Part shown: in pieces, positions 52,025 to 61,819 of the stretch
Numbering within the stretch: position 1 is the first letter of the stretch
How the letters are laid out: each line of letters starts with the position of its first letter
From: Candidatus Poseidoniaceae archaeon
GTDB lineage: Archaea > Thermoplasmatota > Poseidoniia > Poseidoniales > Poseidoniaceae
Assembly: GCA_049598575.1 (NCBI GenBank)
Contig: JBMYNT010000003.1
Coordinates: 1,155-65,154, forward strand
Direction of reading: 5' to 3'
DNA: 64,000 nucleotides
Translations under genes and position numbers: made by a program
Notes under the pieces: generated by a model
Databases searched by the model: none
What the model was told of the DNA's origin: nothing
What the model saw: the letters and a program-made list of their open reading frames with translations, nothing else

Positions 52025-52287
52025 ACGTGGAGGCCTTTCTGTTTCTGGTAGGCCTTTTCCTGTTTGTAGGTTTGCTCGCACTGTTGTACTGGGGCTATTG
52101 GAATGCCCGTAAATTGGACCGTCAAATCATGCAGGGCGATCCTTCACTTCTTACAACAAGCACCTACCAGCGTGAGCAAGTCATCCAAGCGCCTCATGGC
52201 TCAACCATCATGGAAGGACAAATCGTTCAGTTGCCTGGCCAGTACGTTCAGCCGATTCAGGTTCATCACAATCAATTACAACAGTGA
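52021..52287 (+). CDS. Hypothetical small membrane protein (1 TM)
   Basis: N-terminal TM FLFLVGLFLFVGLLALLYW followed by a Q-rich tail. Weak call. Confidence 0.3.
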   Translation: MNVEAFLFLVGLFLFVGLLALLYWGYWNARKLDRQIMQGDPSLLTTSTYQREQVIQAPHGSTIMEGQIVQLPGQYVQPIQVHHNQLQQ

Positions 52288-52941
52288 ATCAAGGTATCCT
52301 TGCTGGTAAGCAATACCAGCACCAAGACCAATGAGAACGAGCAACAACAGAAGTTTTCTGCCACGTTTTTTCGGACGAGCAACATCGACAACTTCTGGTT
52401 CGATTGCGGGTAATTCTGCAATTGGAGGAAGAACTTCGAGTGGGGGGAGTTCGGCAAGAGGGGGAAGTTGAATTTCGTCCGGTTGTGGCTTGATACGATC
52501 CTCGGGATACAATTCATCAAGGTCTTCAAGACCTGGAGCTTCGGGAATCGGCCCGAGAACTTGGTCCCAGATTTCATCCAATTGTGCTTGACTAACTGGT
52601 TTGGCAAGCCAGCCTACGGCTCCGGCTGAGTATGTCGCATGAACGGCTAATTCCTGAAGGCGATTTGGAGCGATAAAGAGAATACGTGAGTCACCTCCAT
52701 GCTCGCGCATTTCCAAGGCTGCAAGATGGCCATCCAATGAGGGAATGTCCAGGGACATAACCACGAGCTCCGGATCGATCTTGATGTATTCGTCAACAGC
52801 AAGGTCTCCATCTTCGCAGACTTGTGTCGCAAATCCTCGTTTCTTGAACACTTCACGCAAGCGCATAATCGACATCTGATTGTTGTCAACAATCAACACA
52901 GTCGGTGCTTCATCCGAGGAGACTTCACTGACGTAAGACAT
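52276..52941 (-). CDS. Stand-alone response-regulator receiver (REC) domain protein with Pro-rich repeat linker and C-terminal TM anchor
   Basis: REC motifs VLIVDNN, phospho-acceptor context VVMSLDIPSLDG, and AxK-like LAKP. LPP(L/I)AELP repeats follow. C-terminal KKRGRKLLLLLVLIGLGAGIAY TM segment. Confidence 0.6.
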   Translation of the reverse strand: MSYVSEVSSDEAPTVLIVDNNQMSIMRLREVFKKRGFATQVCEDGDLAVDEYIKIDPELVVMSLDIPSLDGHLAALEMREHGGDSRILFIAPNRLQELAVHATYSAGAVGWLAKPVSQAQLDEIWDQVLGPIPEAPGLEDLDELYPEDRIKPQPDEIQLPPLAELPPLEVLPPIAELPAIEPEVVDVARPKKRGRKLLLLLVLIGLGAGIAYQQGYLDSLL

Positions 52942-53005
52942 TGCGACCAAATCCACTGAAACAATCCTTGCTCATCAATCAACCGATGAAATGAATGGAA
53001 TTCGG

Positions 53006-55718: not shown

Positions 55719-58568
55719 GTGCGAAGTCTTCTCTTAGCAGTGCTCCTCCTCGTTGCGCCTCTTCCTCTCGGAGATGTGGATGATGAGACGTTCTACTCTG
55801 GCGAAGAAGCCATTCTACGCCTTCCAGAAGGTCAAGTATGGGAGCAATCCGACTGGGATATGTTGAGCAATTTTGGTTTCACGCCGCTACGTTCGATTTC
55901 TCCATCTGAACTGCTCGTTTGGAAGTCGGAAGGGGGGGCGTATCATCCAACTGCCAGTGAATTAAATGCTGAAAGGGCAGTATGGAAATCGCCTCCACTT
56001 GATGGTCAAACGGTTCGAGTTGTTCTTGAACCTGGACTTCCGTCTAGCGTTGTCAATGATATTCATGGTCAAATTCAACTCTTCGGGAACAGCCTTGTAG
56101 GCTCAGTTGATGATGGCTATTTGCCATTCATCGAGATAACATGGGCTTCCAACTTGGATATGAGTTGGTTCGCCAACATTGACGGCGTCCTTTGGCTGGA
56201 GTCGGTTTTACCAACAAGTGGGCGAAATCTCGATTCTGGATCGATTCTCTCAGGATCCGCTACGGAAACGTACCCTGCTGCTTGGACATTTGGGCTCAAC
56301 GGGTCCGGTGTTGTCATCGGTGTTGCAGATACGGGGATTGATTCCGACCATTCCTGTTTCCGTAATGTGTCCAATGCGTCGATCGGTCTCGACCATCGGA
56401 AGCTGTTGCACGTGAACACAACCATTGACGAATGGGACAGTTCAGGTCACGCAGATTATCGTCATGGCACACACACCGCAGGAATTCTTGGTTGCCATCC
56501 TATCGCAACGGCGGTTGAAGATACCATTCCGTCCTCAATCATGTCCCTCGGTTATGGATCTCAATTGGTCGTTCAAGACATTGTCTCCGAACAAGGCTGG
56601 CAACCGCCAGACGTCGATCTGTTGCTTGCTGAATCAGCCTTGTATGGCGGATATCTCCATTCCAATTCATGGGGCGATGATACCACGGATTACACCCTAA
56701 GGTCTGGCGATTTTGATGCTTTCACACGCGAGTTTCCGTGGACGTTACCGCTGATTGCGCCAGGCAACAACGGTGGCTTGGTTCTCGAGCCGGCCAATGC
56801 AAGGAACGTCATTGCCATCGGGGCCGCTACGAAGGACCTCGATACCGAACGTTGGATGTCATCGGTCCATGGACCAACCGATGCCGAAACCCGTGGTATC
56901 TTCGCTCTCGCCCCAGGCGTATCAATTGTCTCCGCACGATCGGACGGCTCTCCAGATACGTACAACTCAGGGCAGCATACATTGAGTGGAACCAGCATGT
57001 CTACCCCAATGGCTGCGGCGTACGCAAGCGTGATTCAACAAATGGTTGAGGAGGGTTGGCTAACAGGGCACAACGAGACGCTGGCTGAGCATTCATTGGC
57101 GGATCGAGCACCTTGGTTTGAGGCTGATGCATCGCAGCATGATATCTTACTTGGAAGCGGATTTACGCCATCTGCGCCAATGATGAAGGCTCTCCTTTCG
57201 CTCTCTGCAACACCACTCAGTGAAGCACATCGAAATGGGGGAGACGGGGGGTCCCATGCTCCAAATGCATACGATGGATGGGGCATACTCAACCTGAGCG
57301 AAATCATTGATTTCGAACTGCTAACTTCACCCTCCTCTGATGGCGAACGACCGATTTCCGATGTCTGGATTCATGACTCCTATCGGTTAGTGGAGGGTGG
57401 CCCTTCCGAACATTTCGAAGGACGAGTCGGATCAAAGCAACCAATCGAGTACCTCATGGAGAACAGTTGGGGCGGTGCAGGTGCGGTCGGGCCGTTCCTT
57501 GCAACAAACGACGTCTTTCAACAACGTTTCATCCTGAATGGTGAAGCGCTTGATGTGCGGTTATCCATACAAGCAAAGCCAGAGCCGCATCTCGTCGACG
57601 ATGTTCAACTCATGGTTCGCTTACCCGACGGTCGGTTTGCTATTGGTGAAAGCTATCGAAGCGACGGTCGTTCAATGCTGTATTATGATTTTGCTGACCA
57701 CCTCAATACCACAGCCTTCCCTCCATCCAACGAAACCACCGTCGGCATTCACCTCGATGAAGAAACGCTCAACGGGATTGAGTTTGTTGATATCATCGTG
57801 ACGGGACGTTATGTGACGCCTGGAAATTTGCCCGGTACATTGGGTATAGAGGGCGATCGACTTGGATTTGGTCTTGCTGTCCGTGGTGTTGAACTCGACC
57901 CATTGAATCACTCTGATGCTGATGGGGATGGTGTGCCGTACGAAGGCGATGTCTGTCCGTTCGTCAGTGCACTTGGCTGGGATACCGACAGAGATGGCTG
58001 TATCGATGATCTCGATAAAGACGGAGTCGAAGACAACTTCGATGATTGCTTGCTGACGCCCCTGGATGTTCCTGTAACCCAACAAGGCTGTGCGCAACAA
58101 AACGACGCCCCTCGGGTGTTTTTGGACGAGGTTTCATTGCAGCAGCATGATAATGAAACCATATCAATTCTCTTTTCAATTCTCGATGAGGATGCTGTTA
58201 ACGTTACGATTGTTCTGGAACGCTTGAGCTCACATGCAGGTACTGTACACGTCTGCACCATGCTTCTCTTGGATGATGCTTGGAATACGTGTTCGGTGAA
58301 TGTGAGTCAAGATTTCTTTCCGTTGAGTGCAGCAGGGAATTGGACGATTGAAATTGATGCTACCGATTTGAATTCCAGCTCATGGACCGCTCCTGCATCG
58401 ACAAGTTACACTTCAGAACAGATCACAATTCATGTTTCACAGCCAATTCAAGAAGAAAAGAACCGTGCTAGCTCATGGACGAATGCTGCACTGTGGTCTT
58501 CTATCACTGCCGCAATTGTCATCTCTCTCATCGCACAATTTATTCTCCGAAAATCTCGAAATGTATGA
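55719..58568 (+). CDS. Subtilisin-like serine protease (peptidase S8) with thrombospondin-type-3-like Ca-binding repeats and C-terminal TM anchor
   Basis: Signal peptide MRSLLLAVLLLVAPLPLG. Catalytic triad in VVIGVADTGID (Asp), HGTHTAGIL (His) and GTSMSTPMAAAYAS (Ser). TSP3-like repeats DADGDGVPYEGDVCP…DTDRDGCIDDLDKDGVEDNFDDC. C-terminal TM ITAAIVISLIAQFIL. Confidence 0.8.
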   Translation: MRSLLLAVLLLVAPLPLGDVDDETFYSGEEAILRLPEGQVWEQSDWDMLSNFGFTPLRSISPSELLVWKSEGGAYHPTASELNAERAVWKSPPLDGQTVRVVLEPGLPSSVVNDIHGQIQLFGNSLVGSVDDGYLPFIEITWASNLDMSWFANIDGVLWLESVLPTSGRNLDSGSILSGSATETYPAAWTFGLNGSGVVIGVADTGIDSDHSCFRNVSNASIGLDHRKLLHVNTTIDEWDSSGHADYRHGTHTAGILGCHPIATAVEDTIPSSIMSLGYGSQLVVQDIVSEQGWQPPDVDLLLAESALYGGYLHSNSWGDDTTDYTLRSGDFDAFTREFPWTLPLIAPGNNGGLVLEPANARNVIAIGAATKDLDTERWMSSVHGPTDAETRGIFALAPGVSIVSARSDGSPDTYNSGQHTLSGTSMSTPMAAAYASVIQQMVEEGWLTGHNETLAEHSLADRAPWFEADASQHDILLGSGFTPSAPMMKALLSLSATPLSEAHRNGGDGGSHAPNAYDGWGILNLSEIIDFELLTSPSSDGERPISDVWIHDSYRLVEGGPSEHFEGRVGSKQPIEYLMENSWGGAGAVGPFLATNDVFQQRFILNGEALDVRLSIQAKPEPHLVDDVQLMVRLPDGRFAIGESYRSDGRSMLYYDFADHLNTTAFPPSNETTVGIHLDEETLNGIEFVDIIVTGRYVTPGNLPGTLGIEGDRLGFGLAVRGVELDPLNHSDADGDGVPYEGDVCPFVSALGWDTDRDGCIDDLDKDGVEDNFDDCLLTPLDVPVTQQGCAQQNDAPRVFLDEVSLQQHDNETISILFSILDEDAVNVTIVLERLSSHAGTVHVCTMLLLDDAWNTCSVNVSQDFFPLSAAGNWTIEIDATDLNSSSWTAPASTSYTSEQITIHVSQPIQEEKNRASSWTNAALWSSITAAIVISLIAQFILRKSRNV

Positions 58569-58655
58569 AAATTGAGCAAAAATTCTTCATGGTTATGAAG
58601 GGCTATCTTCAAACCTTATGGCATCCACGGTGGTTTATCCGAGAAGGTGTTCAAG

Positions 58656-59660
58656 ATGAGCGGACGATTATATGTTGGAATTGACCTAGGAACGTTTCAG
58701 TCAACCATTGCTTCAAGCGCAGGTGCCATGCACTCTGTTGAAACTGTGGTTGGGCGACCAAAGGACCCTGTAGCACGTAACTTCCTCAAGCGTGATGTCC
58801 TCTTTGGTGCTGATGCACTCAAGAACAAACTCGCTTGCAACCTCTACCGCCCAATGGCAGCCGGTGTTGCCCAGGATGATGAAGCCAATCTTGCTGCTGC
58901 AAAGGCCTTCGTATCTCACCTCATCGAAACCGTTGACCCAGAAGAGTTCGACGAAGTATTTGGCGTCATTTGCTCCCCAAGTCACGTTTCATTTACCGAC
59001 AAAAGCAACCTCGTAGCAACCCTCCGTGGCCAAGTCAATGCAATCATGGTCGTTACTGAACCGTTTGCAACAGCCTTTGCAATCGGTGAAATCGGTGGCT
59101 CCATTGTCGTCGATATCGGCGCTGGTACGACCGACATTGCTCGAATCCACGGAACATTCCCAACCGATGAGGATCAAGTCACCATCCAGGAAGCAGGTGA
59201 TTGGCTCGATCTTGAACTAAAAAACCTCATCGCAAAGAAGTTCACTGGAGCGCAAATTACCAAGGACATGGTCCGAAAGTGGAAGGAAGAATCCTCATAC
59301 GTCGGCGGCGACGTTCGAACCGTTGAGGTTTCACTTTCCGTTGATGGTAAGAGCCAGAATGTCGACATTGGTGACCTCATTCAAGAGGCATGTGAACTCT
59401 TGATTCCTAAGGTCGGTAACGCCATCAAGCGCATCGTCGCTGAGGCAGACCCTGAGTACCAACCAGTTCTGCGAAACAACATCATTCTCTCCGGTGGAGG
59501 TTCCCTCATCGAAGGACTTGCAGAGCGGGTCGCTCGAGAAATCTCTGATATTGGTGATGTCAACGTCTGGTGCGTTGAAAACCCATTGGAAAAGGTCGCT
59601 GAAGGTGCACTCATGCTCGCAGGTGAAATGCCTGATGACATGTACACCTCCATCAACTGA
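58656..59660 (+). CDS. Actin-fold (ASKHA) ATPase, archaeal actin/MreB/ParM-like filament protein candidate
   Basis: Phosphate-1 motif VGIDLGT, phosphate-2 motif IVVDIGAGTTDIA, an adenosine-motif-like IILSGGGSLIEGL, and a connect-region GxP (ENPLEKVAEGA). About 335 aa. Confidence 0.65.
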   Translation: MSGRLYVGIDLGTFQSTIASSAGAMHSVETVVGRPKDPVARNFLKRDVLFGADALKNKLACNLYRPMAAGVAQDDEANLAAAKAFVSHLIETVDPEEFDEVFGVICSPSHVSFTDKSNLVATLRGQVNAIMVVTEPFATAFAIGEIGGSIVVDIGAGTTDIARIHGTFPTDEDQVTIQEAGDWLDLELKNLIAKKFTGAQITKDMVRKWKEESSYVGGDVRTVEVSLSVDGKSQNVDIGDLIQEACELLIPKVGNAIKRIVAEADPEYQPVLRNNIILSGGGSLIEGLAERVAREISDIGDVNVWCVENPLEKVAEGALMLAGEMPDDMYTSIN

Positions 59661-59752
59661 TTTGGTTTCTTCAAGCAACACCAAAATCAAGCGCCTAATG
59701 CCCTGATTCACAGGGAAGGTTCAAGAGTGGTTGAGGTTCGATAGTTCCCTGT

Positions 59753-61033
59753 ATGACGCTTGGCGCTCCGAACCCAGATGCCTCACGAGGTTCAACAACC
59801 AGCTCTGGAAACGATAGAGCTGCTCTTGAAGGGATGCTGAAAAGTTACCCCGTTGATCAACTCGTTGAAGAGGTTTTGATCGCTTGGGATGAACTCGGTC
59901 GTCGCAACGATGAAGTTGTCACAATCAAGCAACGGTTACGAGTCTTGGAACTCGATCTCGCTGAGCGCGAAGACGAGGTTGCTCCTGAAATTCAACGCCT
60001 TCACGAATCCGAAGAGCAGTTGAAAGAGGCGGAAGCTCGTATTGTTCACCTTGATCGATTGTTAAACGATACTCGACAAGAGCTCGATGCCCAGGCATCC
60101 TCCTTGTCCAAGGAACAACAAGACGCGCTCCATGAAGAACTCGAACAATTGAGGGCGCTGAGTGTTTCACAGGATGAAGTCATTGCAGAAATGGAAGGTC
60201 GAATGGGGCTCATGGTTGAGGCTTTAGAAAAGGCCGCCGATGCAGGACTTACCTCGGTTACTGCGGATGAAGTTCGTTCTTTGAAACATCAGCTTGAAGA
60301 AAAATCTGCTCAATACGATGCAGAAGTTGCCGCCAACAATGCTTTGGAAGAAGAGCGACAACGTCTGCGTGATATCGCTGACCGGATGCGTGGACTCCTC
60401 GATGCTCGCGACAAGCGTCTTGCAGACCTTGAAGAGCAACTTGAACGCGTCATGCAGGGTCCACGCTCTGTTTCCGCTGAGCACGACTACTTGGTGGAGC
60501 AAATCGAAGAAATGAAGCGAAGGCTCCTCGAGCGAAATCGAGAATATGAGTCGTTGCGTCGACGTGAGCGACGTCTTCACACCGATGTATTCGAGCGCGA
60601 TGAGCGCATCCAACAGATGTCGCTCACCATTACCGATCTCGAGGCGGCTCTTACAGACCGTGTTGCTGAAATCCGTGAATTGGAATCCCAGAACGCTGTT
60701 GCTATGCAGGAGGTAACCAGTGTCCGTCGCGGTGAGCGAACGCGTGAAGTTGTCGGACGTGTCTTTGCTGATTCCCTCTCCTTGGTACGTGGTCATGATG
60801 CACGAGAGGCCAAGCGAGAGGCGTATGCGAACAGCCCTGATGTTGAACGTACACTTTCAACACCTGATGCCGATGATATGCGTAACCTTGCAGATGGTGG
60901 AACCATTGATTTGGGTGTTGAGGAATCTGAACTACCTCAAGGAATGGATGTGGATGATGTTCGCCCACCTTCACCTGGTGGTAGTGGAGATCCTGTTCTC
61001 TTTGAAGATGAATCAGAGAACGCTGATGAGTGA
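59753..61033 (+). CDS. Acidic coiled-coil protein (426 aa), hypothetical
   Basis: Long heptad-like E/R/L/Q-rich helices (…LRVLELDLAEREDEVAPEIQRLHESEEQLKEAEARIVHLDRLL…). Acidic C-terminal tail. Lies 90 nt downstream of the actin-like gene on the same strand. Confidence 0.45.
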   Translation: MTLGAPNPDASRGSTTSSGNDRAALEGMLKSYPVDQLVEEVLIAWDELGRRNDEVVTIKQRLRVLELDLAEREDEVAPEIQRLHESEEQLKEAEARIVHLDRLLNDTRQELDAQASSLSKEQQDALHEELEQLRALSVSQDEVIAEMEGRMGLMVEALEKAADAGLTSVTADEVRSLKHQLEEKSAQYDAEVAANNALEEERQRLRDIADRMRGLLDARDKRLADLEEQLERVMQGPRSVSAEHDYLVEQIEEMKRRLLERNREYESLRRRERRLHTDVFERDERIQQMSLTITDLEAALTDRVAEIRELESQNAVAMQEVTSVRRGERTREVVGRVFADSLSLVRGHDAREAKREAYANSPDVERTLSTPDADDMRNLADGGTIDLGVEESELPQGMDVDDVRPPSPGGSGDPVLFEDESENADE

Positions 61034-61819
61034 TTGTAGTCGCTCTTTCAGTACTTGTAGGTCATCGAATTCTTCAGTAATTGTTCCAGTAACAATGTAG
61101 TCGGCTCCTGCATCTGCAGCAGCCTTCATTTGTTCTGGAGTACGTATTCCCCCACCGACAAGAAGGGTACACTGCATGGATGATTTTGCTGTCTTGATCA
61201 GATCGAGTGAAACTGGTGAAGATGCGCCGGAGCCTGCTTCAAGATACACGGTTGAGAAACCGTACATTTCGGCTGTTTGGCAGTATGCTGAAACGAGTTT
61301 TGAGTCGTCTGGGTGAATCAAGTCCGCTTGTCCGACTTCACCAACTGCACCTCCTGGAGCACAAACAATGTATCCTGTTGGAATGGTTTGAAGGCCTGCT
61401 TGAGCAATGTACGGGGCGCCAGTAAGCTGTTCTTCTATCAAAAAGCGGCGAGAAGTACTGTTCATCAACATCATGAACAAAATTCCATCTGCCTTTGCTG
61501 ACATAGCATGTGCCCCACCGGGGAATAAAATCACTGGAATGTTCCACATCTCTTCGTCAGCATCTGGATGTTGGCTGGCTGCAAACATAGCAAGTTCAAG
61601 CGCTTCCTGAATGGATGCGCAGGTTGCATCAACGATGTTGCTACCAGTATCTGTTGACCCGCCCACAAAAATAGCAGATGTGCCGCACTCGACAGCTACA
61701 AGCGCACGTTGTGCTGCAACTTCTGGAGATTGTTTGTCTGGATCGATGAGCGTAATGTGCTTGGTTCGAGACCCGTCTCGAGGGAGCATTGGCTCGTCAT
61801 GCATCCACATTCCATTCAC
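61013..61819 (-). CDS. Geranylgeranylglyceryl phosphate synthase (PcrB/GGGPS family)
   Basis: TIM-barrel motifs HITLIDPDK, ILFPGG, YLEAGSGA and LLVGGGIRTPEQ. Confidence 0.8.
   Translation of the reverse strand: MNGMWMHDEPMLPRDGSRTKHITLIDPDKQSPEVAAQRALVAVECGTSAIFVGGSTDTGSNIVDATCASIQEALELAMFAASQHPDADEEMWNIPVILFPGGAHAMSAKADGILFMMLMNSTSRRFLIEEQLTGAPYIAQAGLQTIPTGYIVCAPGGAVGEVGQADLIHPDDSKLVSAYCQTAEMYGFSTVYLEAGSGASSPVSLDLIKTAKSSMQCTLLVGGGIRTPEQMKAAADAGADYIVTGTITEEFDDLQVLKERLQSLISVL

Follow-up and report, generated by a model that had tools for sequence, protein, structure and literature searches.

MamK works with acidic or coiled-coil partners, namely MamJ and McaA/McaB, and a coiled-coil Mad20/23/25/26 network acts with MamK and Mad28 (PMC12748827). 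BeeR is a non-magnetotactic member of the MamK-like clade, and both MamK and BeeR polymerise (PMC11929497). Among the euryarchaeal actin homologues, salactin has MamK as its closest subfamily (PMC10746226). Here we analysed a 64-kb stretch of DNA from contig JBMYNT010000003.1 of a Candidatus Poseidoniaceae archaeon (hereafter the window; G+C about 49%), in which a gene for a MamK-like actin-family ATPase is followed on the same strand by a gene for an acidic coiled-coil protein. Marine Group II, to which this archaeon belongs, is among the most abundant groups of surface-ocean archaea and is uncultured, and its cell biology is essentially unknown. Full-text searches of the literature returned no paper on homologues of actin, MreB or MamK from Marine Group II or Poseidoniales and none on either gene of this pair, and a recent review of archaeal cell biology mentions MreB solely for rod-shaped and pseudomurein-walled methanogens (Methanobacter, M. 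smithii) (PMC7613921).

On balance, we favour reading the pair as a two-gene chromosomal cytoskeletal module of Marine Group IIa, in which a MamK-type filament is served by a lineage-specific coiled-coil partner. The two genes and the conserved elements in and around them are the following (aa, amino acids; nt, nucleotides; all on the + strand).

58643 to 58655, + strand: conserved 5' element GAAGGTGTTCAAG, immediately ahead of the ATG of the actin gene, with its GAAGGTG part conserved across Poseidoniaceae
58656 to 59660, + strand: gene for the MamK-like actin-family ATPase, 334 aa from the ATG, supported by profile, PDB, structure-model and residue evidence
59661 to 59752, + strand: spacer of 92 nt between the actin and coiled-coil genes, with an invariant GAARGTTCAAG at 59715-59725 and a conserved GATAG...CTGT ahead of the ATG
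59753 to 61033, + strand: gene for the acidic coiled-coil protein, 426 aa, of a family seen only in the Poseidoniaceae lineage
59816 to 59998, + strand: aa 22-82 of the coiled-coil protein, a conserved N-terminal segment, RAALEGMLK..YP..QLVEEVLIAW..KQRLRVLELDLAERED.VAPE
60338 to 60622, + strand: aa 196-290 of the coiled-coil protein, a central segment that is nearly invariant and includes the helix break MQGPRSVSAEHD; mean column conservation 0.91-0.97
60725 to 60790, + strand: invariant segment RGERTREVVGRVFADSLSLVR of the coiled-coil protein, aa 325-346
60962 to 61009, + strand: short conserved motif RPPSPGGSGDPVLFED in the disordered acidic C-terminal tail of the coiled-coil protein; predicted local distance difference test score (pLDDT) about 40

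Family and active site of the actin-like protein

The original prediction, made from the letters of the window, described an actin-fold protein encoded at 58656..59660 and a charged coiled coil of 426 aa encoded at 59753..61033 on the same strand, and the open reading frame list, the isoelectric point (pI) of 4.55 and the AlphaFold2 (AF2) models agree with it on both. An alternative in-frame GTG start at 58647 would give a gene at 58647..59660 and a product of 337 aa; most database homologues have 334-336 aa. The translation holds the VGIDLGT (phosphate-1), VVDIGAGTTDIA (phosphate-2) and ILSGGGSLIEGL (adenosine) motifs that had been noticed, and these are invariant down to relatives of 42-46% identity. 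The alignment reaching those relatives has D10/G12/T13, E135, D153/G155/G157/T158/T159/D160 and G280-S283 as invariant residues. The ATPase residues E143 and D161 of MamK correspond to E135 and D153 of the window actin, both of which are conserved, and the active site is intact. Ozyamak et al. are said to have found in 2013 that mutating E143/D161 of MamK results in static filaments.

NCBIfam MamK (NF040964) was by far the best profile family for the window actin, with 333.5 bits and an E-value of 1.3e-99 over residues 8-336 against profile positions 1-330. Sequence searches of the PDB returned, in this order, MamK (E 6e-60, crystal and cryo-electron microscopy chains, full length), BeeR (3e-37), MreB (4e-13) and eukaryotic actins. 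Over the domain, the window actin is 33.5% identical to AMB-1 MamK, 32% to BeeR and 26% to MreB, and it shares 42-45% identity with MamK-like proteins from KSB1. The AF2 model (pLDDT 81; predicted template modelling score 0.81) was matched best by the MamK filament subunit 5ljv_A in the fold search (template modelling score 0.85/0.87, E 1.6e-30), followed by BeeR, MreB and actins. With an E-value of 6e-60 to MamK chains and hundreds of near-identical public homologues, the likeness to actin and MamK is far beyond chance, and, as had been predicted, the protein belongs with the filament-forming families of actin-fold ATPases.

Best homology to Hsp70, sugar kinases or StbA-like ATPases, or the absence of ATP-binding Asp/Gly residues, had been named in advance as grounds for rejecting this assignment. 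Neither was found: MamK, BeeR and MreB are the best homologues, and no catalytic or ATP-binding residue is missing. A rival assignment as an actin-fold enzyme or chaperone that does not polymerise, of the Hsp70, sugar kinase, EutJ or StbA-like kind, could draw on faint matches to Hsp70, HscA and EutJ (E 2e-4 to 9e-3; Hsp70 20.0 bits against a cutoff of 20.6), but all of these fall below their cutoffs and are 50-90 orders of magnitude weaker than MamK. The top of the fold search contains only MamK, BeeR, MreB and actins, with no Hsp70, sugar kinase or EutJ among the 50 best fold matches listed, and this explanation is effectively refuted.

Public records name the protein 'rod shape-determining protein MreB'. 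An MreB-type shape determinant guiding envelope synthesis would agree with this name, with the match to Pfam MreB_Mbl (PF06723, 7e-22; 78 bits against a gathering threshold of 27 for this broad model, next to 2e-16 for Pfam Actin), and with reviews that tie MreB and actins to archaeal rod shape (PMC7613921). However, the window actin is far under the cutoffs of the NCBIfam MreB models TIGR00904 and NF010539 (77 bits against 293 and 66 against 366; E 1e-21), its identity to MreB is lower than that to MamK or to the KSB1 proteins, and the fold search ranks MamK and BeeR well ahead. No mreC, mreD or rodZ-like genes were found within the 12 kb examined, and no membrane-targeting or amphipathic N-terminal helix was found in the window actin, the N-terminus of which lies 4 residues ahead of strand 1 in the AF2 model. 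To our knowledge, archaea also lack the peptidoglycan machinery that MreB steers. We therefore consider an MreB-type role quite improbable; the protein shares the superfamily fold with MreB, and its database name is a mislabel.

Kinship with the actins of haloarchaea, which the original prediction had brought up, turned out to be weak. The window actin reached 37 bits against a cutoff of 400 with NCBIfam salactin (E 2e-9), was borderline with Pfam Salactin (27.4 against 27.1) and stayed below the cutoff of Pfam Volactin (23 against 35). Salactin and volactin are likewise euryarchaeal actin homologues, but they differ in these low profile scores and in their host and gene context. No match to ParM was obtained in Pfam, NCBIfam or PDB searches, and no crenactin chain was present among the 60 best PDB matches listed. 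BeeR, the three-stranded tubular actin of Verrucomicrobiota (PDB 8r2n), is the second-best solved relative, but the disordered N-terminal extension of 30-50 aa that defines BeeR is missing from the window actin, which scores 206 bits against a cutoff of 530 with NCBIfam BeeR (NF053558, E 8e-61).

Compared with MamK itself, which is the best match in sequence, profile and structure, the window actin has a similar size (~335-347 aa), keeps the catalytic Glu and Asp and likewise has no membrane-binding helix. The differences from MamK include the modest identity to the AMB-1 protein, a score below the NCBIfam cutoff, the archaeal host, and a Pro at the equivalent of MamK A278, the site of a polymerisation-contact mutant in 5ljw. 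The window locus also has no magnetosome gene context (no mam or mad genes were found among the neighbours examined), and the partner belongs to no recognisable family. By the tests that were run, the window actin is not MreB, BeeR, ParM, salactin, volactin or crenactin; the most fitting description is that of a separate archaeal subfamily within the MamK/BeeR-like clade, with a novel partner.

Relatives of the actin and a second marine lineage

In a wide homologue search, which covered 1.84 billion representatives of 50%-identity clusters, the full-length Poseidoniaceae actins formed one representative cluster, short fragments aside. The next full-length relatives were 39-46% identical and were proteins of 523-1232 aa with the actin domain at the C-terminus, one of them labelled candidate division KSB1. 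Farther relatives at 36-37% identity were labelled ANME-2/Methanosarcinales archaea and Nitrospira ('MamK family'). Outside the marine archaeal clade, no relatives are closer along the full actin domain than the KSB1 fusion proteins (P0242-P0255, P0417-P0419), but these fusions carry N-terminal extensions of 190-900 aa (helical head, acidic linker and basic patch) that are unrelated to the window coiled-coil protein, and in the locus examined they adjoin a second actin, Roadblock/LC7 proteins and a small GTPase. A Rosetta-stone relationship was also tried and rejected: neither the coiled-coil sequence nor a hidden Markov model of its family matched the N-terminal extensions of these fusions.

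The locus examined, in a KSB1 bacterium (L081 8001-16281; GCA_020722815.1, DYKB01000023.1), encodes a 1254-aa MamK-like fusion with an N-terminal helical head, a long acidic linker and a basic patch. The same locus encodes a second actin of 346 aa, 70% identical to the actin domain of the fusion, three Roadblock/LC7 (MglB-like) proteins and an Arf/Ras-like small GTPase. These genes may form a polarity or cytoskeleton system; no papers on them turned up, though no search was aimed at this module.

A metagenome scan revealed a second very abundant marine archaeal MamK-like lineage, here called the type 2 actin (the window actin being type 1), which is 45-49% identical to the window actin and forms a 90% cluster of 1474 members. 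Its genomic context (L083-L166; for example, L088 6001-7026 and L163 10001-11026) consists of elongation factor 2 (EF-2), isopentenyl phosphate kinase and thiolase/DUF35 genes, and the gene immediately upstream of the actin encodes a double zinc-ribbon protein of 338 aa. Its neighbours are labelled 'Poseidonia sp.', and the adjacent EF-2 falls into a 90% cluster with the EF-2 of the metagenome-assembled genome (MAG) TMED99, which holds a type 1 locus (L052), so the type 2 actin is probably a paralogue carried by genomes that also carry the window gene. MamK itself is also commonly accompanied by another MamK-like paralogue (the AMB-1 MamK-like protein and Mad28), and Poseidoniaceae probably have one too.

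In a neighbour-joining tree with 100 bootstraps, the type 1 and type 2 actins formed a clade with 87% support, which lay inside the MamK/BeeR-like group and far from MreB. The sister group of this marine archaeal clade received at most 47% support, the grouping with KSB1 being at 47%, and because of this the tree does not establish the direction or source of any transfer.

The coiled-coil neighbour and its linkage to the actin gene

The coiled-coil protein (pI 4.55, 24% aspartate plus glutamate) was modelled by AF2 with a 22-sequence alignment as four long helices (34-117, 120-163, 171-235 and 241-359) without a globular head; the model also has a small element of low confidence (364-393), and both ends (1-17 and 396-426) are disordered. 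Its best 120 homologues are all 71-93% identical, the named sources being Poseidoniaceae, Poseidoniales or Euryarchaeota, and public records call it 'hypothetical', 'YoxC' or 'SbcCD ATPase'. No Pfam family reached its cutoff; the crescentin rod model Rod_CreS reached 13.6 bits with the window protein and no more than 24 with its homologues, against a cutoff of 100. The NCBIfam matches were to SMC/Rad50 coiled-coil arms only (33 bits against 729) with no ABC (ATP-binding cassette) ATPase head, and membership in SMC/Rad50 was rejected on these arm-region matches and the all-helical, headless model. Foldseek searches against the PDB found generic antiparallel hairpins only (PI3K p85 iSH2, E at least 0.036), to which no family could be assigned. 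No recognisable DNA-binding domain was found in the coiled-coil protein, and no membrane anchor was found in either protein.

The long near-invariant stretches of the coiled-coil protein listed above include surface positions, which is unusual for a purely structural coiled coil, and this pattern in the alignment suggests specific binding interfaces. Residues R404, P405, P408, G409, G410, G412, D413 and P414 of the tail are invariant, and the C-terminal RPPSPGGSGDPV(L/V)F motif (DPVLF) is almost invariant, which makes the tail motif a candidate filament-binding peptide. Izore et al. are said to have reported in 2016 that the crenactin filament is regulated by the small protein arcadin-2, whose C-terminal peptide inserts into a groove of the actin. 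This pair from Thermoproteales offers a mechanistic model for the DPVLF motif, although crenactin is eukaryote-like and the arcadins are unrelated to the window coiled-coil protein.

Near-identical copies of both proteins (actin up to 100%) were present in MAGs labelled Candidatus Poseidoniaceae, Poseidoniales or Marine Group IIa, and the 2.06-Mb Marine Group II chromosome CM001443.1 carries the locus at about 178-191 kb (L056). The genes around the pair encode prefoldin alpha, FtsY, ribosomal protein L18Ae, a membrane-anchored S8 subtilase, geranylgeranylglyceryl phosphate (GGGP) synthase (PcrB) and an ABC transporter, and the block from prefoldin to the ABC transporter kept its synteny in all 80 genome loci fetched. 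Given these housekeeping neighbours, the synteny with CM001443.1 and the labels of the copies, the locus is chromosomal and the host is a planktonic marine member of Thermoplasmatota (Marine Group IIa). The haloarchaeal, halophilic host that the original prediction had implied was not borne out.

A coiled-coil homologue was detected by tblastn (65-98% identity) in 79 of the 80 genome loci; in the remaining one (L006), the sequence stops 67 nt past the actin gene. The coiled-coil gene could be reconstructed whole in 70 loci, of which 68 have it on the actin strand, 80-95 nt past the actin stop codon; the two exceptions are L009, described below, and L051. The match in L051 starts about 0.7 kb past the actin and spans only the C-terminal three-quarters of the protein. 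Adjacency was also found on a short contig (L174) encoding an actin 67% identical to that of the window, where a coiled-coil homologue, 49% identical over aa 21-117, follows 109 nt downstream and its N-terminal segment is still recognisable. The downstream gene that had drawn attention in the window is, across these loci, a conserved neighbour of the actin gene.

Both genes are under strong purifying selection. Actin identity across Poseidoniaceae is 84-100%, and actin is the slowest-evolving of the neighbouring genes. Nonsynonymous divergence (dN) in five syntenic genes, of which only the ranks were used because synonymous sites were saturated, was lowest in actin (0.017-0.12), followed by the coiled-coil gene (0.067-0.28), GGGP synthase (0.084-0.37), and then prefoldin and the S8 subtilase. 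The coiled-coil gene is thus outpaced in dN by GGGP synthase, an essential lipid enzyme.

The upstream regions of the two genes share a short element. The Shine-Dalgarno-like GAAGGTG lies 6 nt upstream of the actin ATG, the GAARGTTCAAG that is invariant across Poseidoniaceae lies about 37 nt before the coiled-coil ATG, and the pattern GAARGT[GT]0-2TCAAG occurs only twice in the 64-kb window, once ahead of each gene, which speaks for a module. The element may act as a promoter or initiator, or in protein or ribosome binding. RNAalifold detected essentially no conserved RNA structure in the 92-nt spacer (-0.03 kcal/mol), and an Rfam search of the spacer gave no match at E up to 1. A 5-codon upstream open reading frame after the Shine-Dalgarno-like motif in the spacer was considered and dropped, its frame not being kept in L036-like lineages as read from the alignments. 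The spacer probably carries a promoter or 5' untranslated region of the coiled-coil gene's own, so that the pair may be co-regulated and not strictly co-transcribed.

Several observations weigh against a dedicated module. The coiled-coil gene keeps its own upstream region, and for this reason the pair is probably not a strict operon. In one genome (L009; PAJM01000016.1, 7006-9282), an insertion of 2.2 kb parts the actin from the coiled-coil gene, and the spacer remains attached to the latter. The insertion carries genes for a 473-aa polytopic membrane protein and a 228-aa protein and is flanked by a direct repeat, CATCAACTGAT, of the actin 3' end, which is why the second inserted gene ends in ...AIN* like actin. 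L173, a diverged-actin contig comparable to L174, has a small membrane protein downstream of actin instead, and no coiled-coil homologue was present near the type 2 actin in the loci examined. The coiled-coil protein resembles neither any known actin partner nor the N-terminal extensions that the closest bacterial relatives carry, and the window actin is under the curated cutoff of NCBIfam MamK (333.5 against 400 bits). Adjacency alone is weak evidence, because the whole surrounding block is syntenic in Poseidoniaceae.

In a rival explanation, the actin forms filaments and the coiled-coil gene is a mere syntenic neighbour with an unrelated function, for example, that of a self-assembling intermediate-filament-like scaffold or of a chromosome or division factor. 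The block-wide synteny, the upstream region that survives the insertion together with its gene, and the type 2 and L173 loci without a coiled-coil gene all point that way, as do the coiled-coil protein's weak matches, which are confined to the crescentin rod and SMC coiled coils. On the other hand, actin is the only neighbour that evolves more slowly than the coiled-coil gene, the two genes remain adjacent in a lineage whose actin is down to 67% identity and whose coiled-coil protein is down to 49%, and the length of the gap is tightly conserved. Taken together, we regard an unconnected neighbour as a serious but somewhat doubtful explanation.

The original prediction had also raised plasmid or chromosome segregation of the ParM/ParR type. 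If the pair were a type II system of this kind for DNA segregation, encoded on the chromosome and with the coiled-coil protein serving as its centromere adaptor, it would have the expected layout of an actin gene followed by a downstream adaptor gene, and DNA partitioning in haloarchaea is affected by salactin, a protein closest to the MamK subfamily (PMC10746226). Yet the window actin has no ParM match, the genes lie in a chromosomal housekeeping locus, and no iterated or centromere-like repeats were found in window 58300-61300. The coiled-coil protein, moreover, is strongly acidic and lacks a recognisable DNA-binding domain, and no small DNA-binding adaptor was found. Such a segregation system is very improbable, and partition of a plasmid is unlikely.

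Further features were observed around the pair. The S8 subtilase gene (window 55719-58568, + strand; 949 aa) lies directly upstream of actin in all related loci; its product has a signal-peptide-like N-terminus, a weak thrombospondin type 3 repeat match and a C-terminal transmembrane anchor, and it diverges fast (38-89% identity among related loci). The coiled-coil gene and the convergent GGGP synthase gene share 21 nt at their 3' ends (window 61013-61033), and the same overlap occurs in related loci (L167 5358-5378). Farther upstream, window 52276-52956 (- strand) encodes an unusual membrane-anchored receiver, in which a response-regulator receiver domain is joined by a Pro/Glu-rich repeat linker (PPLAELPPLEVLPPIAELPAIEPE) to a C-terminal transmembrane helix. 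Two GTDB species-representative contigs (L005 and L010) carry the locus at 98-99% identity under the titles of 'uncultured Rhodobiaceae bacterium' and 'Salipiger bermudensis' MAGs; Marine Group II contigs have probably contaminated these bacterial bins.

A proposed cytoskeletal module and its meaning

In the two-gene module that we favour, the MamK-clade actin would most likely bind ATP and polymerise into cytoplasmic filaments, as the characterised members of the clade, MamK and BeeR, polymerise, and filament turnover would most likely depend on hydrolysis by the conserved Glu135/Asp153 pair. The lineage-specific coiled-coil protein, probably a dimer, would most likely bind these filaments, and it might bundle or regulate them, or tether them to cargo or to the envelope. 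Candidate contacts with the actin are the invariant central coiled-coil segments and the DPVLF motif in the acidic tail. We infer the partner role from the conserved adjacency, the strong constraint shared by both genes, the invariant surfaces, and the precedent of MamJ, McaA/B, the Mad network and arcadin-2. The module might act in shaping the cell, in organising its interior or in positioning DNA, in an organism without peptidoglycan synthesis.

A bolder version would combine the MamK-type actin (possibly bacterial in origin), the coiled-coil partner confined to these archaea and the second MamK-like paralogue into a dedicated machine that positions or segregates the chromosome or an as yet unseen intracellular structure. 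We offer it as speculation and consider it unlikely; if true, it would represent an archaeal, non-magnetosome use of the MamK system in one of the most abundant archaeal groups of the ocean.

The window actin adds an archaeal, non-magnetotactic branch to the MamK/BeeR clade, and its nearest relatives outside the marine archaeal clade, being KSB1 bacterial proteins, raise the question of transfer between domains. The coiled-coil protein represents a new candidate class of actin-associated protein. As a very conserved MamK-clade actin with a dedicated-looking coiled-coil neighbour, the pair provides a testable handle on the cell biology of Marine Group II.

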